A program made the translations under genes and the position numbers. DNA of 64,000 bases, taken from assembly GCA_044892525.1 (NCBI GenBank), contig CM097887.1, forward strand, positions 34,534,001 through 34,598,000, in the 5' to 3' direction. Under the pieces are notes generated by a model that worked only from the letters and a program-made list of their open reading frames with translations, ran no database searches and had not been told where the DNA came from. The DNA is from Schmidtea polychroa (taxonomy: Eukaryota). This document shows positions 810 to 31,656 of this stretch, in pieces. Every line of letters starts with the position of its first letter. Positions within the stretch are counted from its first letter, which is position 1.

Positions 810-1228
810 ATGGCTACAGACGATGATGAAAATGAATCAATTGAAAAAGTTTATCAGAAAAAGACTCAGTTAGAACACATTCTTTTAAGACCAGATTCTT
901 ATGTTGGTTCAATAAAGCCAGAAGAAAAAACATGGATTTTCGATTATGAAGAAAACTGTATGATTGAAAAAAAAATAAATATAATCCAGGCATTTACAAG
1001 ATTTATGATGAAATCCTTGTAAATACTTCGGATAATAAAATAGGAGATATCAACTTTCATGTGCCTACGATGATATTTGGGCAGCTTTTAACCTCAACTA
1101 ATTTCAATGATGATAAAAAACAAGTTACCGGTGTCAGAAATGGCTATGGTGCTAAATTATGTAATATCTTTAGCAAGGAATTTACGATAGAAACGTCTAG
1201 TAAAGAATATGGAAAAAGTTTTAAACAG
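810..1228 (+). pseudogene. TOP2: DNA topoisomerase II 5' fragment (GHKL ATPase region), frameshifted and internally deleted
   Basis: IEKVYQKKTQLEHILLRPDSYVGS, DEILVN, FGQLLTSTNFNDD and RNGYGAKLCNIFS motifs. It ends at a GT donor after SFKQ (1229). Confidence 0.9.
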
Positions 1229-1636
1229 GTAAATATTTATTTTTTATTATTTTTATTCATTTATATGGATATGCGATGCACAATATATTTGTTTTTTAAC
1301 ACTGAGGCGTTCTATGTGTTAATGAATTTTTACTCTTTTGTAGCTGGAATTTTGATAGTCTAAATTTTTTTATTAAATTTAATTCAGTGCCTCATAGAAC
1401 TAGTTTGTGTAGCCTACAACATTTGAAAAAAATTGCTCTACAATGAAAATTTTAGAAGTCGACGAAATGTTGCATTCTAGAAGCATTGAACCACTACAAA
1501 TAGTTTATAACAATCAAACTAGGTCTATTTGTTGATATTGTTTACAAAATTTGAATAAAAAATTGAAATGATTGAGAGAAAACAAAGTACTATTGTAATT
1601 AGACTCAATAGAATATAGCTAGGGTTTTATCAATAT

Positions 1637-4600
1637 TGCTGTGTCACTACTCGGTTGACTATTTCTGCGTTCATTTCCTGGCCTAGGAGATGAATGTCCA
1701 TTTTGATTACTACTATGATCCCTTTGTCAACTCCGAGCAGAGTCTTCAGATAACCTACACTCCAAAATAGCACCCGTGAATTTCTTCGCGTTGGTGATGT
1801 GCTATGCCGTCGAGACGCCAGTAAGCAGGTGAGCCCCTGCCTTAGGACTACTCCTTACTGAGACCTCGACTTCCTACCCTCGACTGCCGATAGAAGGACT
1901 TACGTCTTATTCGAATTGTCCATCCACTTTACTACTCATCGATTTAAATGCAAACTGATACTTTAAACTCTCTCGGGAACACTACTTATTACAATCATCC
2001 AAACTACTCATAAATGAAAAACAAGTGAAAACAGAATCATTTATTGTAACATTGAACATGCGGAATACTAATGCGTTAGATACAACAGAGATATTGGGAT
2101 GAGCGACGATCAAAGAAGGTATAATGAGTTCAGTTAGACAGCCCATCGGATATCAAGATCAGTTCCCGGGAGCAATTCTACTTTCCCAATTCCTCGTCCG
2201 CTAATAATTCTTCTAAGTTAAAAAACTCGGAGGCATTCTCCTCCCAAGTCACTCCAGCGGCGGAGATAATTCGCCCGGAGGTCATTGATGTTGGATCTAT
2301 TGCCGCCGGAGGGGCGCTGGCTTCACTTGCTGGATTCGTCGGTTGTGCAATTTGTTTAGCGGCTATTCGCTCCCGCTGTTTCCTTTTACGCTCGGCTCGT
2401 GATAGTTGCCGGCGTTTTGGCTTCGAGGTTGTTGAGGTAACTGGAAGTGTGGGGGACGTAAGGACGATCGCCGAGGGCCCCTTACTTGTCCCAACGAAGA
2501 TAACCTCTGACCGTTTGGGCGAGAGTTGGGTCTCCACACAGTCGCGGCATGACTTCCTTGCAGGAGGAGACGACTTAGAAGAGGTGTCGTGATGTGGTGG
2601 GAAAAGATTGGCGGCCTCGTTGATCTGTATACTGACTATCTTTTTGGTCGTTGCTGCCTATAAGTACACCTTGTGTAGGGCTTCCAACTACTCCTTTATT
2701 AGGCTTCTCTGGGAGCGGCTCTCGGAGATTAGAGCGTCCCGACAGTGTTCGCTGCGATACAGCCTTTTCTGGACTTCCTTCATTTAAGTGGGACTGAACC
2801 ACGTCCCTTCTAACTCATCTATTTTCCGCTTATACCGTCCAATCTAGGTCTGTAGGTCTTTGATTATCGCATTTTTGTCCGAGCAGGAGAAGCAAGGACG
2901 TAACGCTGTCTTGGCAGTTGGTATCATGATGGCTGTAAAAATGATATTTAGATATAGAGTATATATTATCTGAATAAATCGCGCGTGGCCAATTAGCTAC
3001 TCTCAAAATACTCTACAAAAAAAATAGCTGCGTTAAGTGAAGAAAATTCCCTTTTCCGACAAAATCGTTTCCATCCTATAAGGGATTTCAAAGATTCGAT
3101 TAACTAGGTGATATCGACTTGACGAATGCAAAATCTTGGTACTCATGAATTAATAATTCTAGGTTTTGTTTCAAAAAAAAATGATTGGATTGTAGGCCGA
3201 CATAGATCCTAAAATCACCCTAGTTATCTCGGCAATTTCATTCTTACATATTCGCTACATTTAATAATTTTAATGAAAATAATTTGGTAATAAAGAGGTA
3301 TTATATATCAAAGCGGAATCTCTCTTGTGGGTCGATTATCCTCATCGGTATGAAATTGAAATGACTATTTAGGAACCCCCGGTGACTAGAGTGTGTAGTA
3401 CAGGAGAAAATCCGCATTTATATTTAGTAGTAGTGTAGACAACCCAAATGTTTATAGTGTGCCATTGCTCGATTGATTTACTATCAGTTCTGGGCATTTC
3501 ATGACCTCTCAATTTTTACTTAATGGTAGAAACAAGCATTAGTGAGTTGTACCAGACGGGTAGATAAAATTGAGGCGGCTAGACTCGCGAAATGTCAAAA
3601 ATAATCAACTCTATTCGACTAACATGTTGGATCTACTGATCTAATTTGCCAGGCTGGTGTTCACCTAATTCCGTTAAACCAAAAGAACGATTGAGGGAAT
3701 TTGAGTAGTCAGCCGTCTGCTGATAATAGCCGCGTTATCTGTAATGAGGGTAGTAATCTCTATCTATAAATCCGGGTGCTATTCCGAGTCACTGACACAC
3801 TCGTATGTCGATATACTGGTGGTGAATTGGTATGTGTACTTGGGACAGTCGCATGACAGCTGCCTAGTGGTATGAATGGATTTGTTAGTATTACATATCT
3901 CTTATCTAATATGAATTTTGCCTACTGTTGAATCACTTGTGAAACTGGATGTACTGAGTTTATCTGATGGATGTTAACTTCACAGACATCTCACCGTGTA
4001 TCTAGGTTTCCAAATTCTCACCGTGTGGCTAGTCACAGGAAATCGCTGATCTATGCTGCTGCGATCTCGCATTATGGATTTTTTCTCTATTGTCATGGTT
4101 ACGGGGATTTTTACTGATTATCTAAATGTTCACTGGAAGACAACAACAAGAAGAATTACTAACACTCGGCTCTTTTATTATGCTGTCAAGGTTGGAATTC
4201 ACTCGTTTGGTAGGCCACTGTACTCCTCGCAATTATAATACTACCTCGATGTATTCAATGTGCTGGATGGACGGTTTGTCGAGTTGTTGTTTTTTGAAAT
4301 AAATGTCGTTTAACGGTAGTTTGTATATTTACCTTTGGTATTATGTAATTTATCGAAATTTTCTGATGACCTATGCCTTTGGGAAATTCATCAAGATTGA
4401 GGGTAAGTGGAAAATGTAGATACAAAACGACAGTTACGGCGTTCCAGAACGGGAGTTTCGAAAGTTATTTTATTAGAGCAATATTTTCGGTGACGTATCC
4501 TATAAGATGACACAAAAATTGTCGACGAGTTCGTGAAAACTATGGTATAGATTGATTCAAATAGTATAACTGCTCCAAATCTCCCAAAAAGAACCTATAA

Positions 4601-4734
4601 TTCAGGAATGCGACACCCTCAATCACTGTACGAATCACCTCAAGCTTCTTACATCATTTATTCATCAACTTCTTTAACGCTATGTAACTACTACTTTTCT
4701 AGAAAATTTTCTATATGATTTAGTCGCACGTTCA
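1637..4734 (+). mobile_element. Long LTR, element A (about 3.1 kb, TGCTG...TTCA)
   Basis: Inverted homology to 14768-17492. Similarity begins exactly at TGCTG and both copies end TTCA, followed by a conserved leader. Confidence 0.65.
2178..2927 (-). pseudogene. LTR-embedded antisense ORF (249 codons, coiled-coil N-terminus), 4 in-frame stops
   Basis: Colinear 750-nt homologue of 16188-16937. Stops at 2844, 2784, 2688 and 2658 all align with Gln codons in B. Preceded by TTTTTACAG (2933-2941). Confidence 0.85.
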
Positions 4735-4865
4735 GCGACGGACCCGTGAGGAAGCCCCCACATTTCGGCCCGATTCAGCTGCGTGATTGAAACATTTCGC
4801 ACCCACCGGCTGAGCACCCGAAGGCTCCTCGCACCATGGTACGAAATGTTTCAACTCCACGTCCT
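4735..4865 (+). other. Conserved GC-rich leader at the PBS position of element A
   Basis: GCGACGGACCCGTGAGGAAGCCCCCACAT... is a close inverted match to 14638-14767. Confidence 0.7.
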
Positions 4866-5033
4866 CCAAAACTCGAAAATTCATAAAAACATTAATATCA
4901 AACATAAGTCATAAAAATCCTGAAAATAATACGTTTATTGTTAATCGATACATTTATACATTATCATTAATGAAATTAGGATCAAATGAAGAAAGTAGCT
5001 TAAATTTTTAATAGATTAATAAATAACCATAGA

Positions 5034-7630
5034 CAGCGCCGGTTCGAGATAATTATACGCCCCAGGCGAAAATTATAAAAATCGCCCTATTTTAAAAATT
5101 AGGTACAAAAATTATGATAAAATAAAAAAGTTTAACAAAAAACAATCCATTTATTACTTTATTTCATTTTTTTCGATTGACATATATATAAAAAAAACAG
5201 AATTTATAAGAATGATTTTTTCCTGGCTTTCATGTCTGCAAATTTTTCTATTGCTGCCTCCAAATTTAGGTTTGCTACAACATTATTTTCAATTGAAATA
5301 ATGGCCAAATTATTCAACCTATCTTCCGTCATAGTAGATCGCAAATACGTTTTTATTAGTTTTAATTTACTAAAACTTCTTTCACCACTCGTAACACTAA
5401 CAGGAATTGTTACGAGGATTCGTAAAGCCACCCACAGATTTGGTACTGTACTTTTCAAATTATTATCATTGATAAATTGTAAACATATTAAAGGATCTTT
5501 AACATCATCTGGTACCAATTGCTTCAATGATTCGATTTCCTCGCACAATTCTATTCCATTTATATCACTACTGGCCTCATTTGTTAATTTCAGATGTAAA
5601 TCTTTGCAACTCTTCAGCAAATCACAACGATTTTTATTATTGTGAATATTGAACAAAAAACCCCACGAATCTTCGAAATCTTTCATTTGCTGAAACCTTT
5701 CTGATATAGATATCAACGATTGATCCAGCATAACATTAAAAACATGATTTTTATAATATTTTTCTGGGTCATTTACATCTGGATTTTCATCGTCACACTC
5801 ATAACTAAATTGTTTTTGTCGCCTTCTGATTCTTACAGCTTTAAATTGTGCGTTCACGTTTAATAGCGCAGCGAGATCTTTGGCCGATTTTAAAGCATCA
5901 GAAAAACCGAAGTCTCTATAATTTTCTAGTAAAATCTTACAATTCCGAAGAAGCTCGATGGCGTTACTCATATCAAATGTAGCTTTTTGCAAGGATTAGC
6001 TGACAATATTAAATTTTGACAAAAGTACGTACCAGACAGATAATGTTAACAAAAACTCGAAATCTTCTATTTTTTCAGATAAAGAGCTAGCTTCTGAAAC
6101 AACTGCAGCATCTAATATTGTGTCTTGCAACTCATTTAATGCGTTTCTAATTTCCGTGATTTCAAACATAATTGCTTTAATGCATTCGATTCTACATTCC
6201 CACCTCGTTTCACTTAAAGGTTTAGGATTTAATGATTTAATATGTTTTTTCAATATATTCCATCGTCCAACAGATGCAGCAAACAAAGTATAAATTCTTT
6301 GAACATATCCGAAAAAATTTATGCACATTATTGAAGAAGAAACACTATCACCAATTAGTAGGTTAATTGAGTGACAACCGCAAGGCATAAAAAACGCTCT
6401 TGGATTTTCTTTTAAAATTCTAGCTTGCACTCCTTTAATTTTACCTTTCATATTAGCGCCGTTATCATATCCTTGGCCTCTACAGTTTGCTAATTCCAAA
6501 TTGAATTCTTCTAAACTTTCAGAAATATCATCATATAATCCTTTTCCAGTAGAATCAAAAACTGGTTTAAAGGATACAAAATGCTCTTTTATTTCCATAT
6601 CCTCAACATCATAAAATCTTAACGTTATGGAGAGCTGTTCGATATGGCTTATGTCAGGTGTGCAGTCTAAAATAATCGAAAAATATTTCGATTTACGAAC
6701 AGAATCCAAAATATGACTTCTTGTCATATCACCAAGTGTACTTATTAATTCGTTTTGTATAGTTTTTCCACAATAATGAACATGAATTTCTTGTGAGACC
6801 ACCCTGCGCAAATGCTCATTTAATGGTAAATCAAATTTTCCTAGAAGTTCAACAAGGCCTAAAAAATTTCCATTATGCGGAACAAATAACTTATCACAAG
6901 AACCCCGAAATGCTAAATTATTTTTTGACAAAAATAATGTTATGTTCATTAATCTTTCTAGTACCTTTTTCCAATTATATTTTTCTTGGACTATAAAAGA
7001 CTGCAAATTCTTATCAATAGTTTTATTGCCCTTTAATCTTAATCGAGTTTCTATCCAGTTTTTTTCACATTTTAAATGTGAAACTGACCGTTCGTGCATT
7101 TTCAAGCTGCCGTGAATATTTTTACAATCCCATAAACCAGATTTGGCTAGATTTGACCTTAGCTATGGCATAAATTTATATAAATATATTATATATTTTC
7201 CAATATATTTTTAAAAAATGATCTTAATCTTACCTTACCTCTTATATATTTATATTTTTAAAACAGAATAGGAATACAAATTTAATTTGAACAAACTGCA
7301 ACAACACAACACATTAGTTACACACTTGAAACAAAAAAATTGTTAAAAAAAACTGGTAGCTATAGCTGTTAATTTAACTCGCACATCAGTTTTTGTAATA
7401 CATACATATAATTTTTTTTTATTTCAATTTTCAATACATATCAGAATTTCTCAGAATTGGAAATTCGTATATTTTGCATGTACCTTTTTTTTGTTTTTTC
7501 TTATTTTCAATTTTTTTTAAAACGGTTGGTTTCATAGATAAATTTCAAAATATAAAGTTTTGGAGGCTTATTTTATAATTTACTTTGATTGTTTATAATA
7601 AATTTTGGCGCCCTCTAAAAAAAGGCGCCC
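5034..7630 (-). mobile_element. hAT DNA transposon (ZMYM1-like transposase), one end missing
   Basis: CAGCGCCGG terminus at 5034, GGCGCCC subterminal motifs at 7607-7630, and a transposase with LAFRG, DCTPD, RGQGYDNG and SGERSFSKLKLIK motifs. Confidence 0.85.
5204..7350 (-). pseudogene. hAT transposase, one premature stop (TAA at 5996-5998), with an upstream spliced exon
   Basis: The two track ORFs are in the same frame (NIVS*SLQK). A VLCCCSLF exon lies near 7240-7350 with a GTAAG donor. Confidence 0.85.
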
Positions 7631-7679
7631 TTTTCCAATACAAATCAGAGTTTCACTAAAAAAGCCAAGGATTATTCAC

Positions 7680-8060
7680 ACTATAGTGAGGGGTCTCGAT
7701 GGTCCTGGGAGTTTCAATACAAAAAATTTTTTTCAATAGAAAAATGCGGTCTTCAATACAAAAGCATGGATTTTTCAGACTTTAGTCTTCTTGGTAATAA
7801 ATAATAATATGACCTTGAAAATAATAATAATATTAATAATAATAATAATAGTAATAATAATAATAATGAGATATATGGCTCATTCGAAAGGTCTTGGATT
7901 GTGCTTTAAAATGAGCTATCGTTGAATAATTAAATAGTCAAATGACCTTGAAAATGGTCTCGGGAAAATGTTAATAACTATGCCAATATTAATGATGGTG
8001 ATGACCATTATAGCTCATTCGAAAGGTCTTGCACCAAGCTTCAAAACATCCCCACAAATA
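7680..8060. repeat. Unclassified repeat with TGACCTTGAAA and CATTCGAAAGGTCTTG duplications and an (AAT)n tract
   Basis: Each motif occurs twice within 250 bp. TGACCTTGAAA also occurs near 42997 and 53725. Confidence 0.4.
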
Positions 8061-8287
8061 TTTGTTTTAAAAGTTTTTTTTATTAAATTTATGAATTTTT
8101 TGAAATAATTTTAAATAAATTCAATTAATGTATTTCCATTCTTATCAACCTTCTTATCTATGCCAATTCTCAGTATTTACCTCTCATGATGTATGCGGCT
8201 ATAACGAAAATACACCCAAAAACACTCCATATACTACATTAATCAGGATCGAGACTAGACGAAAAGTCAAACGACGGAAACTCCACA

Positions 8288-9927
8288 ATGGATTGGGCAA
8301 CCATACAGCCAAACTTGGAAATGATCAGATTCATCTGCAAAAACGCGACAAAAGAAGTTGAAAACATCTGCAAAAATACATCCCAATTTCAGTGGAATAC
8401 GGTACGGAAAAATCTAGAAGCAATGAAATTATTACTAACATGGAGAGTACCGCACAGTAATAAATACGCGATAAACGTAAACGAATTTTATGAGAACGGC
8501 GAAAATGCGATGGTCAAAAATACATTAACTAAAGGGGGGACACCTAAAATTATACTAAGTGTATTAAATAGAGAAGACCTGAGATTCACAAGAAACCAGA
8601 ACGAACAACAACGAATTGGAAAATACCGCCGTATACAACTAAGAGAATTAGTAAAAGAATTGAACCGGAAAAGACACGCAGTAACCGGAAGGAAGGAATT
8701 CGAATTTGAGGCTAAATTAGCAAGAAACAGAGTACTGACAGCATACCGAAGATTGTTGAACGATATAAATGTCGAGGACGACATTTTAAACGACAGCGGG
8801 GGAGATAAATACGATGATAACGATGGAAAAGGTCGAAAGAAGGACAAAGAGAAAAGAAAACCGGAAGAGGATAACCCGGAAAATAAAGACCCAGGTACGG
8901 GAAAAGAGGGAAACAACCCGGAAAACAAGATGAAAGAGGAGGAAAAACCAAATAATGGAAAACAGAGGGTATGCCTACCTTTCACCAACAAAGAAATAGA
9001 AACAAATATGATACTAATGATAATTGTACTAACCATGATAGAGGTAGTAACAGCCCATGGAGGGACGAGAACGATAAAAGAGACCAAAGAAGCGGAAAAT
9101 CACAGGAGAGGAACTAAAGCAGGAAAAGAAAAAGCAAGTGCAGGAGCAACAATGGGATCTGAAAGAGGAATGGGATTTAAAGGAAAGATGTATACTAGGA
9201 AGATGCATGTCCCGAGCATATCAGAGATTAGTGTTGATAAACGAGGATACAGAACCGATAACGGAAGTAGGAATACAAGAAGCATACCAACATCGAAACA
9301 AAAAGAGAATAACGAAAGCCAAATGGAAAGAGGTGCACCTAGGAAAAGGAGGTGAAATAGTGATAACACAACTCCAACCAAGAAAAGAACACCGAGTTTG
9401 TATTTCAAGGCTAGGACCAGGAGAGAACTGCCTACAATATGTGACGCAGCAACAGCCACCAAAGAAATACACGGTCTGTATCTTGAGAAAAGGACCAGAG
9501 AAGGAATGCAGACGGTATCCAGGGAAAAGAGGAAAGAAAAGAAAAACTAATGACGAAGGAGACGACGAATGAAAACGCAAGAAAACCAACGAGAAAAACC
9601 AAGACAACTACGTATCAGAAGAAGAAATGGAAAAAATACGAAAAATGGCAAAAGAGGAAAAATCTGAAACAACGAGTACAGTGACAAAAAATGGAGACTC
9701 AGAGATCATCAGCGTAAAGCATGAATCAGCGGAATAATAATAACAGGGGCATTTTTAATCATAACGGGGGGAACAATAAAATCATCAAAGATAGACGACA
9801 TCGCGGAGAACTGGAGTTGACCAGAATCAGAAATTTTCAACATCGAATAAAAAGACCCAGTAAAATAAGTCAAGAGCAGTGGATGGAGACCTGGAGTACC
9901 CAGCGTCCCCCGAATCCACAAATATAG
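8288..9927 (+). pseudogene. Large accessory ORF of unknown function, broken into several frames
   Basis: Track ORFs 8288-9355, 9138-9572 and 9721-9927 overlap or continue in frame with the same A-rich codon usage. Confidence 0.55.
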
Positions 9928-10084
9928 AAAGGATTATGACTGTATATAATTGTAAAAAGTAAGTATATCTTATGTATATAACAGTATCATATTTTTATAT
10001 AAGCGCGGTATCATTAGTATATAAAGATCGGGAGAACCATATAAAATTAAATAAAACCAAGTTGAGAATGTATATAAATTAAGA

Positions 10085-10444
10085 ATGGAGCAAAGAAATA
10101 ACGAAATAAATCACAACACGACAACCGAAAATATGTGGAAGCAACAATGTGCCGTTTTAGCACAACCAGTATCTAGCCTACAAGAGCAAGGACTTACAAT
10201 GCAAAGGAACCTAGTTGATAGTCTAAACAAGGGATTTAGCTATTTAAAGATAATTGAGGATCAGAGGTCAATAATCGAACAAATGCAGAGAGAGATAGAA
10301 CGGATAACAAGATACAGCCAGAGACAGGAAGAAGAGTTAGTGAGAATGGCGGAAGAAGCAGAATACGAAGAGATGAAAGATTGGTCAGAATGGTTAATGA
10401 GCAGAGAAGAGGGCGGACAAGAGACCGACTCTTCTGAACCATAA
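10085..10444 (+). CDS. Accessory coiled-coil protein, 119 aa
   Basis: Intact ORF rich in Q/E heptads, bounded by AT-rich spacers. Confidence 0.6.
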   Translation: MEQRNNEINHNTTTENMWKQQCAVLAQPVSSLQEQGLTMQRNLVDSLNKGFSYLKIIEDQRSIIEQMQREIERITRYSQRQEEELVRMAEEAEYEEMKDWSEWLMSREEGGQETDSSEP

Positions 10445-10527
10445 ACAAAACCTAAACTAGATGTAAATAATGGTAAATAAAATATCGAACCTGTATCGAT
10501 AAGAACTATATGTATATAATTGTAGGC

Positions 10528-11832
10528 ATGGATAGACAACGAGGAGAGGAGTTTAACGAAATTATCGAGTTAGTCAGAAATTCCGCAGCAATCAGAATAC
10601 ACAAACATGTCATGTGCGGAATATGTGAAAAATTGTTAAAGGAACCCCATCAAACCAAATGCGGATGCAGATTGTGCAAAGAATGCATAAAAGAAACAAT
10701 AAAAAACAGACCACAGTGGTGCCCGATATGTAAAGAGACACTGATATCAAGTCTAGAAGATACTAACGAAGATAAAGCCGCAGTAAAGGACATGCTGAAC
10801 ACTAATCTAGGATGTAAAAATACCCCATGCGAATGGAGAGGATCGACATGGAAAGTAAAACAACACCTAGAGGAATGTTTGTATAGAGTCAGCCAGTGTG
10901 AGCGATGCCAGAAGATAATTCAAGCTAACGAGGAAAAGGAACATCAAAGCCAGTGTGAAGAGAGACTAGAAAGATGTGAATATTGTGGAGAAATAGACAC
11001 GTGGAAAAATCTCACCATCAAACATCACAATGTCCAAGAGGAAAAGGTATGTGTAGAATTCTGTGGTGAATGCCCGAACGGATGCAACAAGGGGGAAACA
11101 ATAAAAATAGCCCAGCATCTAAAAGAATGTGAAAGGAAAAGAATGATATGTGTATTAGGTAAATGGGGCTGTCAGAAATTACTACACAGAGGAGACTTAC
11201 CACATCATTTAACAGAAAATTTAATAACTCACGCAGAAATGTGGTCAACAAATGGAGACTGAAATAACCTCATTGAAGGCATTGATTAAAGAACTATTAG
11301 AAGAAAGAGAAGCATTCGAACAAGCTCGAGCAAACATAAAAATGCAAATAAATCGAATGGAAATCAGTAATGAGCAAGCCAAAGTGCTACATCAAAAAAT
11401 AACCGAAATAAATCTCAATGAAATACTGCCATATGGAAAATTACGGGAGTGAAAGAAAAAATACAAAAAGCAAAGACCGGGGAAGAGACAAGAATAACAA
11501 GTCCCGCATTCCTCTCTTGGAAGAACGGATACAAAGTGAAAATGAAGATATATCCTAACGGAGATGGAATCGGATTGGATACACACTTTTCGATCTTCTT
11601 CCTAGTATGTAAAGGGGAACACGACGAAGTAATAGAATGGCCGTTTCAGGCTAAAATCGATATCGCAATAATGAATGACCGAAGCATCCACGAACAAAGC
11701 TTCAAAACAACGGGAAATCAGCTAGCCAACCAAAGACCCCTGGAAGAAGGAGCAGCAACGGGAGCACCTACATTCATTTTGCAACAAAGGGTAGAGGATA
11801 TGGCGAGAGAAGGAAAGAGCAGAACCGAGTAA
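10528..11832 (+). pseudogene. TRAF: Intronless TRAF-family protein (RING, TRAF zinc fingers, coiled coil, MATH) with 2 frameshifts
   Basis: CGICEKLLKEPHQTKCGCRLCKEC...CPIC RING, CPNGC zinc finger, and a MATH domain WKITGV..ITSPAF..GYKVKMKIYPNGDGIGLDTHFSIF..GEHD..WPF. Frameshifts at about 11250 and 11430. Confidence 0.9.
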
Positions 11833-12025
11833 CGAGTGGGGATGATGTTGTATATAATAAATTTGTATATATCGGTGTATATAACCTATAAAATAGTATA
11901 TAATAGTAGTATGGGATCCGCAAATACAACAACCCAAAACTGAAGCGAAAAATCCAGGAAAAACATCAACTGAATAATAAAATCTAATATTGCGATAATA
12001 TTTAATTAGAATATATAATTTAGAA

Positions 12026-13046
12026 ATGACACAAGAGAAAACAACTGAAAGTACGACGACCCCAAGTAATGCAACCAAGACACAAATCCCCAGAGAATAT
12101 CATGAGAAATGGAACAAGGTGATGTTCCAATTAACCAACTTAACCCGCAACCACATCGAAGAAGCCAGGGAAGACGAGAGCAGTAGATATCGATGGTTGG
12201 TAAACAATCTGAGAACGGAAGCGGAAACATGTAAAAGGGCCGCACAATGGGCCTCGTTAGAAAATACTCGTCAAGAATCACATGTCACTACCTAAGGCAA
12301 CTGCTACAAGAATCGCGGAAAAGACTGACTGATGAGAATAAAAAACGAGAAACCGAAAAGCAAAAAGAGGAGAAAAAGATGCGACATCTATTGGCAGAAG
12401 CCAGGAAATGGAAACGACAGAGCAGAGAAAGGGAAAAGGAAATGAAGGAATTGCCTATGAGACTCAAGTACGAGAGCGAGCAAGGCAAATGGGAAGAGAA
12501 CCTAGTCATAAAAGAGGAACTAAAACGGTTAAGAAAGATTGCCGCCCGAAGTCAAACATGGCAAACCAAGGCCATAGAGTTTGAAAATAGGCTATGAAAA
12601 TCTCCATAAGAGAACATGAAAACGCAGCAATGGAAGAAATGATATTTCAGCAATCGGGACGAATCGTAGAATTAGTGAATAAAGTCGCCGAGCTAGAACG
12701 AGATGTCAATGGATACCAAGGAGCCCTGGAACAGCGAAACATGGTATTGACAGGAAAAAATAAAAAGCTGGAAAACGAAAGGAAAATGTATAGTAAAAAC
12801 ATTAAAAATCTGGAGATCGAAATCGAAAAATGGAAGGGCGATGAAAAGATAAAAGAACTGGACAGGCAATTAGAAGTGAAAGATGAGGAGACGAGATACC
12901 TCACCTATTTGCTCGACGAAGAGCTAAATATCACTCGAGCTCAACTACCCAACCTCTATACATCACAAAATCCTATAGCAGTCCACCTGAACCTGACAGT
13001 AGAAAGTGACGAGGGATACTGGGGTCAGGAAGAGACGTTTGTATAA
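12026..13046 (+). pseudogene. Long coiled-coil accessory ORF (about 340 aa), 2 frameshifts
   Basis: Track ORFs 12026-12295, 12247-12597 and 12594-13046 join by single frame changes. Confidence 0.6.
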
Positions 13047-13177
13047 TTGAAGTCAAAAGCAAAAAATAAAAATGGGAACTGTATCCCAACAAAAAAAAAT
13101 TAAGGGTATAAAATATGCTATAAATGTATAAGTATAAGCCGCATTGTAGCGCACTATTAATTATAAATATTATAGAC

Positions 13178-13798
13178 ATGAAGATTGAAGAGATAATAGA
13201 ACTCATGAGTGAAGTGGAAGGAGAGATTGAAGTGGAAACCACAGAAACACAAATACTAAAGAAAGAATTGCAGGAAGAGAAACGAGAAAACGAGAGACTA
13301 ATAATACATGGGAGACCGGAAAATAATTAAAGTACTAAAGAAAGAGTGCAAAGTACTAGGAAAAGTAAAGAGGGAAGCGGAAGAGAAAAATGAATGGTTG
13401 CAAGAACAACGAACACGAGGAAGAAATTGGGAAAAGATAGAGCAAGCTTCAAAGCAGAAGAAGTAATCCAAGACTATTGGAAAACAGAAGCGCAAGAGCG
13501 CCAAAGAACCATAAATAAATTAAACCAACAACTGAAAGAAAAACAACAGGAAAGTGAAGAAATGAAGAAATGGAGTCGCAAGTACGAAGAGATGGAAATG
13601 CGACATCAACAACAGCAGCGACAAAGAGGCAATGATCAGGAACCTGAACAAGATTTCCTACAAATCGTGTTAGAAAGAAATCTCGACAAAAAACGGGAAG
13701 AAATAAAAAAATTGAAAAAGGAGATACGACACCTGAAAAGAGAAGCCCGTGAAAAAGATCGGCAGTTAGAAATGCTGCCCGAATTAAGCTTGAAGTAA
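13178..13798 (+). pseudogene. Coiled-coil accessory ORF, frameshifted; homologue of 30166-30537
   Basis: RASFKAEEVIQDYWKTEA versus GASFKANEVIEDYWKTEA, and DFLQIVLERNLDKKREEIK versus DFLQLELRRNLEKKRKEIK. Confidence 0.75.
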
Positions 13799-14176
13799 GT
13801 TCAGTATGCAATTGCGGGACGCAATTTTGATGGGTCCCCGAGTGATTTGTTGGGCTGAGTCGAAGGGTATCTAAGAAATTAGGTTAAGCATAACTAAATT
13901 AAAATAAAAATAAAATAAACAAATTTACGAATAAAATAGAATAAGATATAAGAAAAACAATAATTAGAAAATAAGAATTAAAACAAAAAAATATAAAAAT
14001 AAGAAAAATTAAAATAGGACAACAGAATGACAAAAAATAACGTAAAATGCAGTAAATAATATGGAAATTAAAGAAAATAAATAAAAAATACAATAAAAAT
14101 AAAGAAAATAGGAAGAAATAACTAAAAAACAAGAAAAATAAATTAAAGCAATAAAATTAAGCGGTACTCAATTCTG

Positions 14177-14401
14177 ATTGGTCCGCACACATCAAAAATT
14201 ATTATATAGGCAAACGCAAAAATTATAAACTTACAGTTAAACCAAAAACTTTACAGACAACAGCGACCTACAGGAATTCGATTCAGAAACCAGAAACATT
14301 AGCACGTCGGCAGTTAAAAATCTACTCAGACTTCAACTAATACTTAATTCGATCCAGTACCTTCCGACTCAGCCTATAAATCTATTCAAACCCTTAGTAA
14401 G
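14177..14401 (+). promoter_or_regulatory. Antisense promoter (ATTGG 14177, TATATA 14203) and GTAAG donor (14397)
   Basis: The same three elements occur in the same order in element C (29207, 29189, 28905). Confidence 0.5.
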
Positions 14402-14767
14402 GACATTTTATTTTTTTTATCTTTGATTTATTTTAAACGGTTAATAATGATCATGTATATTTGCGAAATAATTAAATTTATAATTTGAAATGATTTTCTT
14501 TTCGTTTGATTCCGTAATAATGGGTAATTTATTAAATAATTTAGCTGCTTAATCGTAATCACTAATAATGAACGAGTTTTTCTAGATTTTTGTAATTGTT
14601 TTTATGGGTTATTATTTCATGATTTTAATCTCACGAGGAACGTGGAGTTTAGACGTTCCATACCTTGGTGTGAGGGACCTTCGGGTGCTCAGCCGGTGGG
14701 TGTGGGACGTTTCAATCACGCAGCTGATTCGGGCCGTAATGTGGGGGCTTCCTCACGGGTCCGTCGC

Positions 14768-17492
14768 TGAAGGGCACTCTAAAATGTCTCTGGAATGATC
14801 AGAAAGAAGGAGTAGAATCAATCTAATTTGTAGGAAAAGTAATAGCAGCGAATCACAGTGACTGAGCGAGTCAGAAGTCTTCGTATCTACAATAATTCTT
14901 CAAACTAAAATTCTCGTAATCTGAAAATTTAGTGTCACCGTCAACCGTAGGTCTAGATCTGTCATTTTCGTTAATAGAGTAAGCATCATCTGTCTGTAGA
15001 TTATTCCTTCACCTCGAAATTGCCACTCATACTCTGTTCCAACAATGAATGTAGTTTAAAAACCCTTATTCCGGTAGTAGAATAGCTATGTAGTGGAATA
15101 CCATACAATCATCAATATACAATCGAAAAACAAGACAAAATATGCAAAGACTTTTATTTGATTACATAAAAGGAAAACAAATTTCGACATACTTACCTAG
15201 AGATAGTGCATAAAAGTTCATATTTATATAAATTCCGAGAGGGTCGATATCCACGAGTTGAGATCGGTGCATGTATCTTGAATAATTGAATAATTCATCC
15301 ACGAAGCAATATATCCAACAGTTACGACGAGAGAGAATTTCCTAATTTAATTTTTCTGATGGACAGCAATCCAACGCAGTGTGAGGTAACATCTGAAAAT
15401 CCACGCAACATGTGAATCGGATTAAAATTCCATGGAATGAATACACACGCATACACGCGCAGGCACATATTGTGAAGTCCAGTAAACGGAACCCGTATGA
15501 GAATACCCATCAGTGATAACACTATCATGACTAAGCATAATCGCGCGAAAATAATTTTCCATGCATCACATGCATTAGAAATTTTGGTTATCTAAGAACA
15601 GTATGTAGACTCGCAGCGAATAATTATCATGAGAAATCATACCTGGTGCGTCGGGTGTAGTTTCAACTAATAGATAAAATCACTAGTCGTAAACAGATTT
15701 CACACCAGCCACGGAAAATCGACAGCAGGCAATTTGCCATTTCAAGTCCACATCGTTGGATTTTCTAAAAAATTAACGTTTATAATTAATAATTAATAGT
15801 AATTGATTTACCTATCTATCTATAAAATCCGCATATTGAAGGATTTCCGTTTATAAATTAGCCATGTATTTTAGTCTGAGCTCCTCAATGCTATTTACCA
15901 TTTTCGAGGCAAACCCAATTTGTAATAATTCCATAAACATGTAATGTTCATTTTCAACAATAATGCGTTACCTCCGTTTGACAGTCACTTGTTGCCGGTC
16001 AGTTTTCTTGTAAGTAAATAATCCCGAGGGAATGAATATCGATGAATCCAACGAAACTCCTCTTGCTAGCTACCTGTTTCTTTTCTATAGGAATACCTAG
16101 TTGACGAATAATTGTGTCGGGATGGTGACATTATAATTTGGTTTATCTTATAATTTTAGTTCTATCTTTTCTTCTTAGCCATCAGATATGTTACCCAATT
16201 CAAGACCTGTTCTCAAACCCTGTTTTTCTTGTTCCGACAAGAATGCAATAATCAAGGACCTCCAGACTCAGATCGGACGGTACAAAAAGAAAATAGACGA
16301 GTTAGAGGGGACCTGGTTTAGTCCCGCTCAGATGAAAGAAACTCAGAAAAAGTTACACCGAAGTGAACATTGTCGGGACGCTCTAATCTCCGAGAGTCTG
16401 GCCCAAAGAAGCTTGATAAAAGAGCAGTCCGAGGCGCTGCATAAAGTATATATCCAGGCAGCGGCCACTAGAAAGATGGTGAAAATCCCCATCGGCGACG
16501 CCGAGAATCTCTTTCCGGCACACCATGATACATCTGCCAAATCGTCGCCCCCTCCAAAAAGGTCTTGCCGGCCGTGCGTAGAAGCCCAACTCTCGTCGGA
16601 TCCACATGAAGTTGTTTTTGTTGGACATAGTCGAGTACTGCCTAACATCGCCTCTACTTCGGCGGCAGCCCCGAACAATGCATCGACCGCAAAGCCCAAG
16701 CGTCGGCAGTTATCCAGGGCCGAACGTAAAAAGAAATAGCGTGAGCGAATAGCTGCGAAACAACCCCAGCCCCTGCCGGATCTCGCGAGTAAAGACAATA
16801 ACGTCCCTGCCACAATTGACCTAACAACAGGGACACCAGGGCGAATCATATCTGCCGCTGGGGTAACGTGGGAGGAAAACGCCTCCGAATTCTTTGATTT
16901 GGACGAATTACTCGCCGACTCTGAGTGGGAAAAATGAGAATTTGCCCGTGAAATGACCTCATCCTTGGGAGAGTCCTGAATCAACTAATATCGTTTTTCT
17001 ATTACTGCGTTTTTCCTTATTCTAATTCTGTTGTATAAATTATTGACGCGTCTGTAGTGTAATGTTAGAAATAAACAATTTTCGTCTGTATAGGTGTTTT
17101 GTTTTTCGTTCATAAGAGATTTAACATTGAGTGGTAAATAGCATTGAAAGTCTCTGAGATTCGAGGAGTATTGTTCAATTTGCAATCCAAACCAAAGGTA
17201 TGGCGATGGGGTGACAAAATAAGTAGACGTAAGTCTTTCTATCGGCAGTCAGGGGTAGGAAGTCGAGGCCACAGTAAGGAGTAGTTCGAAGGTGATGGCT
17301 CACCTGCTTACTGGTGTCTCACCGGCATAGCACAGTTCCAACGTGAAGTGATTCACGGGTGCTATGTTGGAGTGTAGGTTATGTACGGGTCCTGCTCGAG
17401 GGTGACGAAATCGACGAGCGTAATCGAAGTGGGCATTCATCCTCTAGACTAAAAGTGGAACTAAAGGTGGTCATCCGAGTAGTACCCCAGCA
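14768..17492 (-). mobile_element. Long LTR, element B (about 2.7 kb, TGCTG...TTCA)
   Basis: Homologous to LTR A, with TG/CA termini at the homology boundaries. Confidence 0.65.
16188..16937 (+). pseudogene. LTR-embedded antisense ORF (249 codons), one stop at 16737
   Basis: The frame continues after TAG as RERIAAKQ...GVTWEENASEFFDLDELLAD and matches copy A. Acceptor TTCTTCTTAG ends at 16178; AATAAA at 17070. Confidence 0.85.
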
Positions 17493-17789
17493 TAATTTTT
17501 GGGGGCTCAGCCGGGATTTAGATTGAAATTTCCGTTGACTAGTGAGAACTTCACCGGGATTTTTGAATTTAATTGATTGATGAATGCAAATTGACTAATG
17601 CTTACCGAATCTTATCATAAAATTACGATTAGAAAATAATAAAATTAAAGATATAAATAAAGTTAATTTAATAATGGGGAAATAAGATAAAAGTAAAATA
17701 AATTATAACGATTTTAAAAAGGAAAATGTTTGATGAAACAACCATTAATTAGCTGTATATTATTAAGACATTTTCTTTTCCCAACAGAC

Positions 17790-18266
17790 ATGACGGAATT
17801 CGCAGAACAGATGCAACAATTAATCAACTTCATTGATATAGAAAACGATCCCATAAAAATGCTTATACACAAAAGAGAGAGGATTAAGAGCATACAACTA
17901 CAAACAATGGGACAAGCACCAGTCGTACCTAACCATATGTCAATAGCCATAGGTCTAAGTCGTAGAGATGGTAAAGTAAATCACGAAACAATATATCAGT
18001 GGTATCAGGAAAGATTGAGACACCCTGCATTGAATCTAGAATATCATCGACTACGAGATCAATTAGATACTATACCCGACATAATTGAACAGAAGATACA
18101 AGAAAAACTCACTAAATTACGAACCTGTCCGTCTTGCAATCTTCGTCCTATACGCGTACTGTTCTTACCTTGTGGACACCTCAGTCACTGTGAAGAATGC
18201 GTGAACGATTTAAAACGATGTATGATATGCAAGTATGAGATAAACTTTGAAACATTATATCATTGA
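17790..18266 (+). CDS. Protein with a C-terminal IAP/XIAP-type RING finger (C3HC4_3), 158 aa, no BIR domain
   Basis: CPSCNLRPIRVLFLPCGHLSHCEECVNDLKRCMICK. The ATG at 17790 follows the acceptor TTTTCTTTTCCCAACAG. Confidence 0.8.
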   Translation: MTEFAEQMQQLINFIDIENDPIKMLIHKRERIKSIQLQTMGQAPVVPNHMSIAIGLSRRDGKVNHETIYQWYQERLRHPALNLEYHRLRDQLDTIPDIIEQKIQEKLTKLRTCPSCNLRPIRVLFLPCGHLSHCEECVNDLKRCMICKYEINFETLYH

Positions 18267-18325
18267 AACATTATACATCTTAATGTTAAAAATTGATATT
18301 TTCTTTAACCGTATTTAGAAAAACA

Positions 18326-18393
18326 CCCACGGGCATTTGAAAAAGTCTCCACGGGCACTTTTTTGCCCGCGGGCTCTAGGTTGGGCACCGCTG
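18326..18393. mobile_element. hAT (Charlie-type) element end
   Basis: Ends GGTTGGGCACCGCTG and has repeated CCACGGGCA subterminal motifs. Confidence 0.5.
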
Positions 18394-18980
18394 AGATAAA
18401 GGAAACTCATATGGTTTATTATGGTGAATGAAATTGTTAAAGATACAATAACATCTATGAACATCGAATTAATATTGACGATTGAATATGAATAAATGTA
18501 GTCTTTGTGTGAAATACTATTAAAGCTTGAATTTTTATTTATTTTGTGGCGAATAAAATTTGGTTGTGAACTGAGTAGTTTATTGTTTTTATTTCTATTT
18601 TTAATTTTTGGATCAAACGAAAAGAAAAGTAAATTAACGTGGAATTAGTCCCAATATAGGCTGTAGGAGTACAAACCGAGCCACCTTCGGGCGGTACGTT
18701 CTATCATAAAGAAAACCAATTGGGAGGGGATAACCGATCAACCTAAGTGAGGAGCGTAGGGCGAGGTACCATCGCAAATGATAAAAAGTTTCTACGGTAT
18801 GACTGATCACCATGCCAATGTAGAAATGGATCATCGCGATCGTTTTGTGTTTTGAGCAAGGGGGAAAAGGGGAACCACTAGCGGTAAAGATTAAGTTGAC
18901 AAATTAAAAGTAGAGAGATAATGTAGAGTAAAAGAGGAAAGAAAGAAGCAGAAGCATGCAGAATGAGAAAGAATAAGATC

Positions 18981-21339: not shown

Positions 21340-22393
21340 AAAATTTATTTTATTATCTGTATTACCAAGAATTTCGTCATTGATTTTGTAAATGCCTGGA
21401 TTATAAATCATGAAAATCATGAGCCAAAATTATTATTGTTGACTTCAAAGATGATTCACCCTGATGATATTCTTATATTCTATATTTTGAATAGTCTCAT
21501 GTTAGTTGCTGTACTTATCATAAATTGGTTTAAGTTTTATTTCCTCATTTATTGGCGATTTACTGGGTGATTTATTCCATACTCTGAACAGTTTTTGTGC
21601 CACTTCTGGATAAAACTGAATTGCCGCTTTCAGTTCTTTATGTTTTAAAAATAATATAAATTTACTAACACATCAATAGTTTTCTTAATGGTGGTCATTG
21701 AAGAATCTCTAATTTTATTATCTGAAGCATTAACAAAAATTTCGTCATTGATTTTGTAAAGGTCTGGATTATAATTAATTTCTTTTTGAATCATACAGTC
21801 ATCGTCCAAATTTTGCATACTAAATTTTTCTAAATCTGGGTAAAACGTGACGCTGGTGAAATCATTGTCCTCACAATCACTGATAATTCTCTCATATTTT
21901 TTACTAAACGTTTCTAGCGTAAATTCCTTGCTAAAGATGTTACATAATTTAGCACCATAGCCATTTCTGCCACCGGTAAATTTTTTTAGAAATAAGTTGA
22001 GGTTTCCACCTGTCCAAATAAAATCTTTGTTAAATAATCATCGAAACCTTTTTCCTTTACAGCAAGGATTCCTTTCCCATTATTCCAAATTCTAATCATA
22101 TTATTTGGTCCATTTATATCTATCTTAATGCAAGACATTTCAGGATCTCTTATTTTATTATCTGAGGCATTTACAAGGATCTCATCGTAGATCTTGTAAA
22201 TGCCTGGATAATATATAACTTTTTTTTCAATCATACATTTATTTTCAGAATCGAAAATCCATAAAAATTTTTCTTCTGGCGTTATTGAACCAATATAATA
22301 ATTTTGTATCAAAGCAATGTGTTTTAACTGAGTCTCTTTCTGAAAAACTTTTTCAATTGACTCATTTTTATCCAAAAACTCGTCTGTAGCCAT
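21340..22393 (-). pseudogene. TOP2: DNA topoisomerase II 5' fragment, deleted and internally duplicated
   Basis: MATDE..IEKVFQKETQLKHI, YPGIYKIYDEILVNASDNKIRD, WNNGKGI, TGGRNGYGAKLCNIFSKEF and VTFYPDLEKF motifs. The YKI.DEI block recurs at about 21720-21790 and 21350-21410. Confidence 0.9.
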
Positions 22394-22452
22394 TCTATTT
22401 ATTTTCTAAATATTTTAAAATATAAACTTAATAATAAATAATTACTTATTAT

Positions 22453-25870: not shown

Positions 25871-25949
25871 AATAGTTATTCTATCTTTTGAATAGTCTCA
25901 TGTAAGTTGCTGTACTTATCATAAATTGTTTTAAGTATTATTTGCTTTC

Positions 25950-26132
25950 GAAAATCATGAGCCAAATTAATTACTGTTGAATTCAAAGATGATTCACCGT
26001 GATGATATGCTAATTTTCTATCTTTTGAATAGTCTCATGTTAGTTGCTGTACTTATCATAAATTGGTTTAAGTTTTATTTCCTCATTTATTGGCGATTTA
26101 CTGGGTGATTTATCCCATACTCTGAACAGTTT
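25950..26132. repeat. Direct copy of 21412-21594
   Basis: About 180 bp near-identical, with a further partial copy at about 25870-25935. Confidence 0.85.
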
Positions 26133-28904: not shown

Positions 28905-29211
28905 CTTACCACAAACCTCTCTGAGAGTGTTGAAAAATAATATCAAAGGTGTCTCGAATGGTTTTCTAAGTCTAGTAATCTGGTTCCCTAAATTTCGATC
29001 TCTGTCCGTTTAATCTGAATGAATTTAATTCGATATCTAGTAGATGGTCCCTGTCGAATGAGCTGTAGTGTCTGTTAAGAAATGGTTCCTAAATCCTGTA
29101 GAGTTTTTTGGTTAAATGGTTAATAAAATTTATAACTTTTACCTGTAGAGTTTTTTGGTTAAATGGTACTCTACAGCTATTTCGCCTCTTATATATTATT
29201 TTTCGTCCAAT
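28905..29211 (-). promoter_or_regulatory. Antisense CCAAT/TATA promoter and GTAAG donor of element C
   Basis: CTGATTGG...TATATAAG and TTAACCAAAAAACTCTACAG (twice) match B 14173-14260. GTAAG at 28909-28905. Confidence 0.5.
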
Positions 29212-29544
29212 CAGGACACGACTTGTTTGTAATTTTATTATTTATATGTTTTTCATTATAATGTAATGGGTTTTAACGACCTTACTTGTTTTTTTATTAT
29301 TATTTTCTCAATTCTTATTGTTTTTCTCTTATTTTTCTGCGAATTTATTGCCATTTTATTGCACTATGATTTTTTGTTTTAATTAGTCCATGCAATTATT
29401 TAGGAATGGTTTTATTTTTATTTTATTACTTTAATTTCTCGTATATTTTCCTTAAATTTTGTTATTTTATTTCCCTTTTATTGTTAGCGGGTTAGATAAT
29501 TTTCTTTTTGTCCTATTTATTGTCTTAAAAGTTTTATTATTTTA

Positions 29545-30030
29545 TTAGTTATTCCTATTTCTTTTATTGTTATTCGATTTTTGCAGATGTCGTTCACTTT
29601 TGGGAGGGTGATTATCACGATTAGGGTGGTTTCGGTGATTACCACAGAGGAGTTCATGAGTGTCATTTGTTTCACTTGAATTTTTTGTTTTTTCGACTGG
29701 GTTTTGTATCTCCTGATGTTGGACTTGTTGCTCCAACTGATCGAATTGTTGGATTTGGCTCAGGATTCGTTTATTGATGACTTTGCACATGGGGTTGTTA
29801 CTACACATTAGTCTGATGTTGTTGACGTAATTTCGGTTTGCTCGAATATTGTCGATAAGGTTGGTTTTCACTATACTTGGGTAGATGCATGATGGGGTTA
29901 TTTGTTCGACCTTTTGGTTAGGTTTTCTGTTGTCTCGAATCTGTTCTATTTGGGGTTTTACTGGTTGCTGCCTTGTCAGTTCAAGAATTATCTTCATCAT
30001 CATCATCATTACGACCGTTTTGTTTCTCAT
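29545..30030 (-). CDS. Accessory ORF of element C, unknown function (N/Q-rich)
   Basis: Open frame with ATG at 30030 after TGTATAACAG. It is absent at the equivalent position of B. Confidence 0.55.
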   Translation of the reverse strand: MRNKTVVMMMMMKIILELTRQQPVKPQIEQIRDNRKPNQKVEQITPSCIYPSIVKTNLIDNIRANRNYVNNIRLMCSNNPMCKVINKRILSQIQQFDQLEQQVQHQEIQNPVEKTKNSSETNDTHELLCGNHRNHPNRDNHPPKSERHLQKSNNNKRNRNN

Positions 30031-30165
30031 AATACTGTTATACATTAATTATTTTTATACACATTTATACACATCGCATTTTGTTCGCTTTTAATTTTTT
30101 CGTTTCTTTTTAGGGTCTTTCTCTCGGATCCGCATTAATTTGGATTCTGCTTTTATGACCCTATG

Positions 30166-30537
30166 TCAGAGTTCGGGTAATATTTTCAGCTGTCTATTTT
30201 TCTCCTAGACCTCTTTTAGGTGCCTTATCTCTCTTTTTAAAGTTTTGATCTCTTTCCTTTTCTTTTCAAGGTTCCGTCTTAGTTCTAATTGTAGGAAATC
30301 GTTTTCTTCTGGGTCATTTTTCCTTTGGCTTTGTTTTCGATGTTTTGCTTCCATTTCTTGATATTTATTGTTCCATCTTTCCATCTCTGTGCTCTCTTTT
30401 AATTTTATTTTCAGCTGGTTTTCTAACTCCTTTATGGTTTCCTGTCGCTTTCCTGCTTCTGTCTTCCAATAATCTTCGATTACCTCATTTGCTTTGAAAC
30501 TGGCTCCCTCCATAATTCTTCCGTGATCTTTTCCCAA
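30166..30537 (-). pseudogene. Coiled-coil accessory ORF, homologue of 13394-13798, with a premature TAG
   Basis: The frame continues after the stop as EKNRQLKILPEL versus EKDRQLEMLPEL in B. Confidence 0.75.
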
Positions 30538-31656
30538 TATCTACCTATTTTCGGTGTGTGAATACGTGTTTGCATTGATGCATTAAAGCAAACTCGAATT
30601 CTTTTTAATTCTAGAACATTCTATTTTTGATTTTTGATGATTTTAATGGCAATTTTGGTTTTTATTTTAAAATTTTATTTTTTTAATTATTTTTTGTTAA
30701 ATTTGCCTGCATGATGGATTTCGCCATTGTTATGAATTGTTCTGGGTTTTTGTCTAGAATTTTCTTTTATTTTAGATTTTTCACAGTTCTTTTACTCCGT
30801 TCGAGTTTGTTTTTGTACTGTTGTGTTTAAGTCGATTTTCATGTGATACTTCTTGCATTTGTTTTAATTCTTAATTTAGATGTTTTTATTTTATTTGTTT
30901 ATTTGGTGTTATATATTTTCTATTTACGTAAGCTTACTGCTAGGTGTGCATGTTATGTACCACAACATTTCATCACTTTTGCAAGATTTTTGGGTCTAGA
31001 ATTCAGTTCTAGCCCAACACTAAATTTATCGAAAATAGTGTAACTGACAAGATATCAATTGCCATTGCATTCAGACGCCTCGACAGCTTCGATACAAAAG
31101 TTTGATCGAGACTCGGAAACACATCTTTAAGTGATCTCTGCTTCCTTAAAGCATATTTTAGACAAACACAAGAATAACTTTATATTTTTTTATTATTAAA
31201 TGATATGCCATATTAGAATGTTTCTGTACTATTTGAATTTTTGTACAATAATTTTATGTTTATATAACATTTTAAATAATATATTTTTAACTATTATTAT
31301 ATTGTTGTGTAATAATTGAATTTGTGTACAATACATTTATGTTTATATTTCATTTTGAATGATATAATTTTATGTTCCATTTTTATTTTAAAAAAAGTAA
31401 TATTATGCAATAAATAACAATAAATTATCACAAATAAGTTATTTTTATTATTTGTAGACATTAAAGAATTAACAATATTTCGTAATTCGATCGAATTACG
31501 AAATATTTAACTTGCGAATTCCGATTTTTTTATTTTCCTCGAAATTTGCAATCCCTACTCAGGGCAAACTGATAATTGTTGGTCTATTCCCAGAATAATA
31601 ATTTCTCTTCCTTTTATTGTTTATATTAGTAACGGTGGTGAATTATGAGGTTAATT

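Follow-up and report, generated by a model that had tools for sequence, protein, structure and literature searches.

A conserved sense-strand gene in a long terminal repeat-like unit of a Burro-like planarian retroelement, and its possible role as an RNA-binding regulator

A window of 64,000 nucleotides (nt) from the planarian Schmidtea polychroa (assembly GCA_044892525.1, contig CM097887.1, positions 34,534,001 to 34,598,000) contains two copies, A and B, of an open reading frame (ORF) that is a real protein-coding gene under strong purifying selection. Each copy lies in a unit with the layout of a retrotransposon long terminal repeat (LTR), and on sequence criteria the gene is sense to the element, not antisense. 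The overall anatomy, a sense gene within an LTR, is highly probable. For the protein we favour, with a probability of about 0.4, a nuclear RNA-binding regulator that would act in a Rev-like manner on an RNA hairpin in its own predicted intron. Coordinates of all features (window positions) are collected in Table 1.

Table 1. Features of the LTR-like units, the gene copies and the associated element genes.
Feature	Position	Strand	Remarks
ORF copy A	2178..2927	-	249 codons + stop; 4 premature stops (codons 28, 48, 80, 90)
ORF copy B	16188..16937	+	249 codons + stop; 1 premature stop (codon 184)
LTR-like unit A	1632..5030	-	5' part cut off beside a hAT transposon (transposase frames 5204-7162)
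LTR-like unit B	13810..17497	+	~3.7 kb; borders set by loose contig ends (left) and by A/B homology with the primer site (right)
CCAAT box (reversed) and TATA-like motif	14174..14210	+	predicted promoter; same layout in relic C at 29212 (-)
Predicted end of short first exon	14250..14256	+	contigs of other copies and relic C continue with donor-like sequence absent from B
Conserved structured RNA block of A	4731..4866	-	fold z -5.8
Conserved structured RNA block of B	14635..14771	+	88% identical to A; long hairpin and second hairpin; fold z -2.5
Acceptor-like site of A	2933..2945	-	short pyrimidine tract, AG at 2934-2933, 6 nt ahead of ATG; failed pyrimidine filter
Polypyrimidine tract and acceptor-like AG of B	16160..16178	+	passed acceptor filter
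AATAAA of A	2040..2045	-	motif
AATAAA of B	17070..17075	+	predicted LTR poly(A) signal
Conserved non-coding U5-like block of A	1632..1907	-	right end of LTR-like unit A; begins with donor-like GTAAGT; B homology stops at 1637-1632
Conserved non-coding U5-like block of B	17225..17492	+	77% identical to A; donor-like GTAAGT at 17229
Primer-binding site	17500..17519	+	20 nt; in reverse complement it resembles the 3' end of a tRNA, with terminal CCA
Charged coiled-coil-like ORF	13394..13798	+	ends 12 nt before LTR-like unit B
Frameshifted TRAF-like gene (RING, MATH)	10477..11832	+	in A-rich ORF cluster upstream of LTR-like unit B
Accessory ORF with IAP-type RING finger	17790..18266	+	directly behind primer site; strong acceptor-like tract just ahead of ATG
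Relic C	29100..30540	-	homologue of the 13394-13798 ORF, AT-rich repeats, CCAAT/TATA and donor-like site in the same order as B; the conserved ORF does not follow

Conservation and decay of the gene copies

The two frames are inverted relative to each other and both measure 750 nt, as an earlier note on this DNA had observed; they align without a gap over 250 codons at 67.7% nt identity, with the same residue or stop in 170 of the 250. Identity at the three codon positions is 0.77/0.82/0.44, and over 244 comparable codon pairs the proportion of differing synonymous sites (pS) is 0.755, which is saturated, against 0.182 for non-synonymous sites (pN). In codons 17-92 omega, the ratio of non-synonymous (dN) to synonymous (dS) divergence, is 0.015; bootstrapping of the A/B comparison gave a finite dS in only 431 of 1,000 replicates, with omega 0.04-0.15. 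The claim of a protein-coding gene under purifying selection, made previously from 27 synonymous, 9 non-synonymous and 4 nonsense differences counted by eye in a 72-codon block, is upheld by the contrast of pS and pN and by the gap-free 750 nt, and the count itself is exact for codons 19-90, 20-91 and 21-92 (three of the 14 windows of 72 codons tried). The description of the gene as functional can be kept for the family; it does not extend to copies A and B, both of which carry premature stops.

Two other accounts of the frame were rejected. For a gene in the antisense frame, the minus frame with common third positions gives an omega of 0.18, the expected shadow of the sense frame, and relatives match the sense frame only. 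A changed genetic code behind the stops is not compatible with host and element ORFs that end in TAA, with a 668-codon host ORF that needs no read-through, or with the terminal TAG of A, which faces TGA in B.

The premature stops have a pattern of their own: all five in A and B are one type of single-base transition on the coding strand. Stops make up four of the 13 changed codons in codons 17-92 where ~7% would be expected (P 0.01), and five of 80 over the whole ORF, no more than usual (P 0.37). In the conserved blocks of A, counting first and second codon positions, that transition occurs at 9 of 56 sites and its complement at one of 62 (P 0.006, chosen post hoc); third positions have no excess of it (4 versus 7). 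Transcription-linked or deaminase damage is a possible cause of this bias.

Contigs of public sequencing runs were aligned on 13400-18400 at 85% likeness and their depth, which is not copy number, was summed. In run X2 four bins within the ORF have summed depths of 1,096-10,504 and seven spacer bins have 53-316, and the contig identical to the window has a depth of 14; we read this pile-up of contigs on the ORF only as a sign of many diverged copies that keep it. The spacer of 1.4-1.8 kb between the upstream conserved block and the ORF cannot be aligned between A and B (score 26 against a shuffled mean of 25.5). Indels fall outside the ORF in all 12 of those listed (of 56), and two of the 15 contig joints listed (of 34) remove parts of the ORF in some copies. 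No variant at the premature-stop codon of B is found among the 40 listed of 714, and B differs from every covering contig at one nearly invariant column (depth 3,032/3,032, run X2). The 15 listed joints include no GT..AG joint into 16178, which is uninformative either way on splicing. Two runs are guessed to be RNA; the profile of X1, which reaches all 30 bins, is DNA-like, and X6 leaves 14903-16739 uncovered, so that they too are uninformative either way, here on expression. One contig in each of two runs links the 5' RNA block straight to the U5-like block (14761-17227), omitting 2,465 nt including the ORF; a short, gene-less variant of the LTR probably exists as DNA.

Anatomy and orientation of the LTR-like units

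Homology between units A and B is colinear and falls into three blocks. The first pairs 4956-4731 with 14550-14771, the second is the ORF, and the third is a terminal block reaching as far as 1632 in A and 17497 in B. At 1637-1632, the point where the A/B homology stops, A meets unrelated DNA, and the primer-binding site begins 2-7 nt past that end, directly after the right end of B. We tentatively take this site to be the complement of a tRNA-Pro 3' end; the 64-kb window holds no tRNA gene for comparison. The left border of B is marked by loose contig ends before 13810, from 10 contigs of run X5 and three of X1 (low agreement, 0.67; 24 of 847 loose ends listed). Between these borders the CCAAT/TATA motifs, poly(A) signal and U5-like block, all recognised as motifs only, follow in LTR order on one strand over ~3.7 kb. 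The U5-like block (17225-17400; 1907-1732) has the highest contig depth of the region (51,648, run X2) and mixed fold support (z -2.3 in B, -0.8 in A). Of the signals named in the earlier note, AATAAA does follow both ORFs (2045-2040 and 17070), and in each copy AG|CCATCA precedes the ATG, the G of the AG lying at 2933 in A and at 16178 in B; the polypyrimidine tract said to accompany it is present in B, whereas that of A is short and failed the filter. The placement of the gene inside an LTR, first proposed in that note, is thus supported at the level of an LTR-like repeat by primer site, borders and motif order. From units A and B, relic C and the contigs compared, we regard the 13810-17497-type unit as very probably an LTR. 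Being inverted, A and B are not the two LTRs of one element.

Several observations count against this anatomy. No polypurine tract abuts 13810; the termini are AATT..AATT or ..CAGCA, not clearly TG..CA, and the exact left end may lie ~10 nt further out; and no gag or pol was recognised in 59 frames scanned in the window or in 18 long frames, the downstream part of B breaking off near 18300. Element-like DNA and genes stand on both sides of B, which requires either a tandem with a shared LTR or a nested insertion; relic C, which repeats the order of coiled-coil ORF and then promoter block, favours the tandem. The missing polypurine tract, the unclear termini and the element-like DNA on both sides of B, together with the want of a full element, would suit a different layout: the ORF segment could be an accessory region in the interior of the element, or could belong to a non-autonomous or BEL/Pao-type repeat, with the real LTR shorter or elsewhere. 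That arrangement is very unlikely given the proximity of a 20-nt primer site to the end of the A/B match and the entry of A into unrelated DNA at that same point, the divergence of contigs at 13810 and the LTR order of promoter, poly(A) signal and U5-like block; the ORF, moreover, ends at its own stop and contains no ubiquitin or host-gene piece.

The orientation of the gene follows from unit B, where primer site, CCAAT/TATA, poly(A) signal, TRAF-like and IAP-type RING genes and the A-rich strand are all on the ORF strand. Since the primer site marks the element RNA as plus strand at B, the ORF there reads as sense. The gene had been described as antisense to the LTR, by analogy with HBZ of human T-cell leukaemia virus type 1 (HTLV-1), whose basic region and LxxLL motif are resembled by parts of the present protein. 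That copy A runs opposite to the plus-strand gene cluster at 8243-13800 could suggest a gene read from the LTR against the element, but A is a separate inverted unit in which RNA block, ORF, AATAAA and U5-like block are colinear with B, and the minus strand has no primer-like start after 13810. An antisense gene is extremely unlikely, and the HBZ analogy falls with it, no bZIP family being matched at E ≤ 0.05 in A or B.

The position of the ORF within the LTR depends on where the transcript starts. If the promoter near 14200 is the LTR promoter, the ORF would lie in a very long R region; with a start near 17065 it would lie in U3, as does sag of mouse mammary tumour virus (MMTV). We lean to the former, because the TATAAAT at 17034 of B is not kept in A. 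To judge from the motifs, the messenger RNA would be spliced into 16178.

The predicted protein, the RNA block and their possible function

A search with the unbroken 183 residues of B against 1.84 billion representatives (cut-off E ≤ 0.001) returned eight matches (E 2e-7 to 9e-4, 29-38% identity), and a profile search added five, giving 13 relatives of 30-42% identity in public gene models (UniParc numbers). Twelve of these are models of 224-848 residues that join the family segment to some unrelated host domain (subtilase, symporter, actin, MCM and others), and the thirteenth is a fragment of 94 residues. The fused models are probably gene-prediction chimeras at insertion sites, the alternative being real exonisation. 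In three of them different host exons are joined to the same four residues ahead of the family start, as expected from a shared acceptor just before the ATG.

Ten aligned family sequences have nine invariant columns and share a plan of helical core, low-complexity linker, Arg-rich patch and, where present, acidic-aromatic end. The coiled coil, basic patch and acidic-aromatic tail described in the earlier note are all present. A model of B (stop as X) has confident helices at residues 13-40 and 46-96, the remainder being disordered (predicted local distance difference test score, pLDDT, 62.9; predicted template modelling score 0.28). The patch contains 9 Lys/Arg in 15 residues in A and B and up to 11 Arg in 15 in relatives, of RRRRERRR type. 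The structure prediction called for at the outset thus supplied helices but no fold match: the B model has no match at E ≤ 0.001 in BFVD or PDB.

That no known domain could be recognised is also borne out. The best PDB sequence match has an E-value of 0.019, Atlas matches (0.89-0.91) include none that is informative, a single-sequence word search confirmed none of 1,051 candidates, and Pfam gave for the family only a Rootletin coiled-coil match below cut-off and no similarity to a host family. No other host of full elements was found in viral contigs (32 pattern stretches, none confirmed) or in metagenomes, and three viral 18-mer matches are chance matches of 20 nt.

Upstream of the ORF lies an RNA block of ~135 nt in which A and B agree at 88% of positions, the neutral sites of the two units being saturated. 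Fold z-scores of -2.5 (B) and -5.8 (A) for the element strand compare with -1.7 and -2.7 for the opposite strand. All 50 predicted pairs are kept in A and B, three of them by changes on both sides. The hairpin contains a 13-nt near-copy of the primer-site sequence (14684-14696 in B, 4819-4807 in A), which could be a second binding site for the primer tRNA. No Rfam family, ribozymes included, matches at gathering score in the 64 kb, and five matches around B are at chance level (E 1.5-8.9). The block sits between the donor-like site that follows 14256 in other copies and the acceptor at 16178, so that only unspliced RNA would carry it.

We propose that the LTR promoter near 14200 would start an RNA with a short first exon, and that splicing to 16178 would take out the hairpin and yield a messenger RNA ending at the LTR poly(A) signal. 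In the protein, the helical N-terminal part would mediate oligomerisation, the basic patch would bind the hairpin of unspliced RNA, and the acidic-aromatic tail would recruit a host export or expression factor. A hairpin confined to unspliced RNA follows the logic of Rev and its response element, and the basic patch and predicted helical core fit a Rev-like protein; the tail does not. The role of nuclear regulator suggested earlier remains plausible from helices, patch and tail.

Other evidence weighs against the Rev-like proposal. Neither copy is intact. The tails of A and B (8-9 acidic residues, 7 Trp/Phe/Tyr/Leu and an LxxLL within 30 residues) resemble an activation domain more. No match to eight leucine-rich export-signal consensus patterns occurs C-terminal to the basic patch in A or B, and because an export signal was looked for and not found the protein is not filed as a Rev-family member; a weak match to the REV domain in one of ten family proteins (19.1 bits, cut-off 22) may be compositional. 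Covariation in the hairpin comes from two sequences only, and 65 of 500 shuffles reach it. The RNA block could instead be a signal for replication, reverse transcription or packaging.

Replication or packaging as the role of the block would go with a transcriptional transactivator of the LTR promoter, for which foamy-virus Tas or Tax is the model: the helical core would dimerise or bind DNA, the basic patch would be a nuclear localization signal and the LxxLL tail would activate. The composition of the tails in A and B accords with this, as do their conservation (pN 0.10 in codons 219-249), the acidic-aromatic ends of relatives and the failure to find an export-signal consensus. Domain, PDB and BFVD searches, however, turned up neither a fold nor a family that binds DNA, for a plain localization signal a shorter Arg-rich patch than that of the relatives would do, and the location of the hairpin in the predicted intron would be coincidence. 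We hold a transactivator to be nearly as likely as the Rev-like regulator.

A third function would be that of a host-directed accessory protein, for instance a nuclear factor that counters silencing or cell death; its place in the LTR would let solo LTRs make it too. This would match the host-modulating cargo of the element (TRAF, IAP-type); in Burro1, by the excerpted text of PMC13465017, which cites Lee et al. 2026, B-IAP protects stem cells. The lack of any host-family similarity beyond the sub-threshold Rootletin match and the appearance of the family only in fused gene models speak against it, and we think it unlikely.

The Rev-like reading can be taken further. The LTR of a giant planarian element might be a complete self-regulating unit with promoter, intron containing an RNA response element, spliced Rev-like gene and poly(A) signal, its R region being almost 3 kb; in this full form the proposal is rather unlikely. 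If it were true, every solo LTR could make the regulator in trans, and a third lineage of animal retroelements would have evolved a switch of the Rev/response element type on its own.

The element, its surroundings and related systems

Nested transposons crowd the AT-rich eukaryotic DNA of the window. The A-rich cluster at 8243-13800 contains at least six sense ORFs with frameshifts, among them a 370-codon frame, the TRAF-like gene and three charged coiled-coil frames; the 370-codon frame has ankyrin-like Atlas features (score 0.97, only 113 of 256 common) and no Pfam match. The MATH domain of the TRAF-like gene is well supported (PF21355, E 2.2e-21; best PDB match TRAF2), and this gene is tied to LTR B by position, the arrangement being partly repeated in relic C. 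On the other side of B the RING finger is closest to cIAP/XIAP (E 1e-9), with no BIR match, and contigs of other copies link the primer site to the RING ORF (17491-17819).

Elsewhere there are decayed hAT transposases at 5034-7162 and 23339-24153, the first adjoining the cut 5' end of unit A; only a single end resembling a terminal repeat was found. Another LTR family is represented by primer-site-like TGGCGACCAC motifs at 487 (minus) and 28575 (plus), one of them followed by an open frame that runs off the window start. Decayed gene fragments at 753-1211, 21345-22448 and 25877-26135, in inverted and direct copies (HATPase_c, E 0.001), are presumably DNA topoisomerase II-like, as judged from a motif. 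An unbroken 668-codon sodium/hydrogen exchanger frame (50004-52010, PF00999) is the only clear host gene recognised in the window.

The cargo suggests a Burro-like element, which we do not assign to Burro itself because no gag or pol was recognised in the frames scanned. For this and the other published systems compared here, statements are limited to the excerpted text of the sources cited. Planarian Burro elements carry TRAF/MATH and IAP-related cargo and separate accessory ORFs (PMC6431247; PMC13465017). The giant gypsy-like Burro/GYPSM1 elements are alike in the combination of TRAF/MATH and IAP-type RING cargo, the LTR of several kb and the AT-rich host, and the Dugesia tigrina element likewise has its accessory ORFs as separate frames (PMC6431247). 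They differ in that their IAP cargo has BIR and RING, where here a RING but no BIR match was recognised; in their giant gag-pol polyprotein with gypsy-type reverse transcriptase and an internal region of up to 25 kb, where no gag-pol was recognised in the frames scanned; and in that the excerpted text of PMC6431247 names no gene inside the LTR, where here a whole gene is inside the LTR-like unit.

As a functional model for the present gene, on predicted features, the closest counterpart is CERV of Caenorhabditis elegans Cer1, an accessory protein of a gypsy-type element that is needed for export of unspliced RNA (PMC10309623). CERV is likewise lineage-restricted, made from a spliced messenger RNA and built of a helical zipper part and a basic nuclear localization signal; the present gene differs in having 249 residues in one coding exon wholly inside the LTR, and the likeness is set by description only. 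Rev, Rex, Rec and Rem (PMC5568270) are alike in that they combine a helical or coiled-coil part with an arginine-rich motif and that their RNA has a structured element in the env/LTR region. They also possess, in most cases on the C-terminal side of that motif, a leucine-rich export signal; none was found here, nor was homology above cut-off. Sag of MMTV (PMC9147501) is likewise a sense-strand accessory ORF that makes its LTR unusually long; it overlaps U3 and is a superantigen, whereas the present ORF comes after the best promoter candidate, which may put it in R, and its product looks nuclear. The antisense additional ORFs of plant LTR elements (PMC7264820) and HBZ of HTLV-1 are comparable as extra conserved ORFs of unknown origin; in contrast to them, the present gene is sense, in an LTR and without a bZIP match.

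Gypsy-type elements with accessory regulators are known, and so, separately, are LTRs with sense ORFs. A whole orphan gene between LTR promoter and poly(A) signal together with a conserved upstream RNA structure was not found in the literature searched; the primary Burro papers (Grohme 2018, Lee 2026), supplements and Repbase were outside the scope of that search, and prior annotation is possible.

Retrotransposon LTRs are treated as non-coding, and the accessory biology of Burro has centred on captured host domains. The family described here is hidden in public gene models of planarian type, where it is fused to unrelated host genes and thus goes unrecognised as an element gene. An orphan gene borne by the LTR would mean that solo LTRs are not inert and, with the conserved RNA structure, would offer a handle on how a giant, heavily spliced element expresses and exports its full-length RNA in planarian stem cells.

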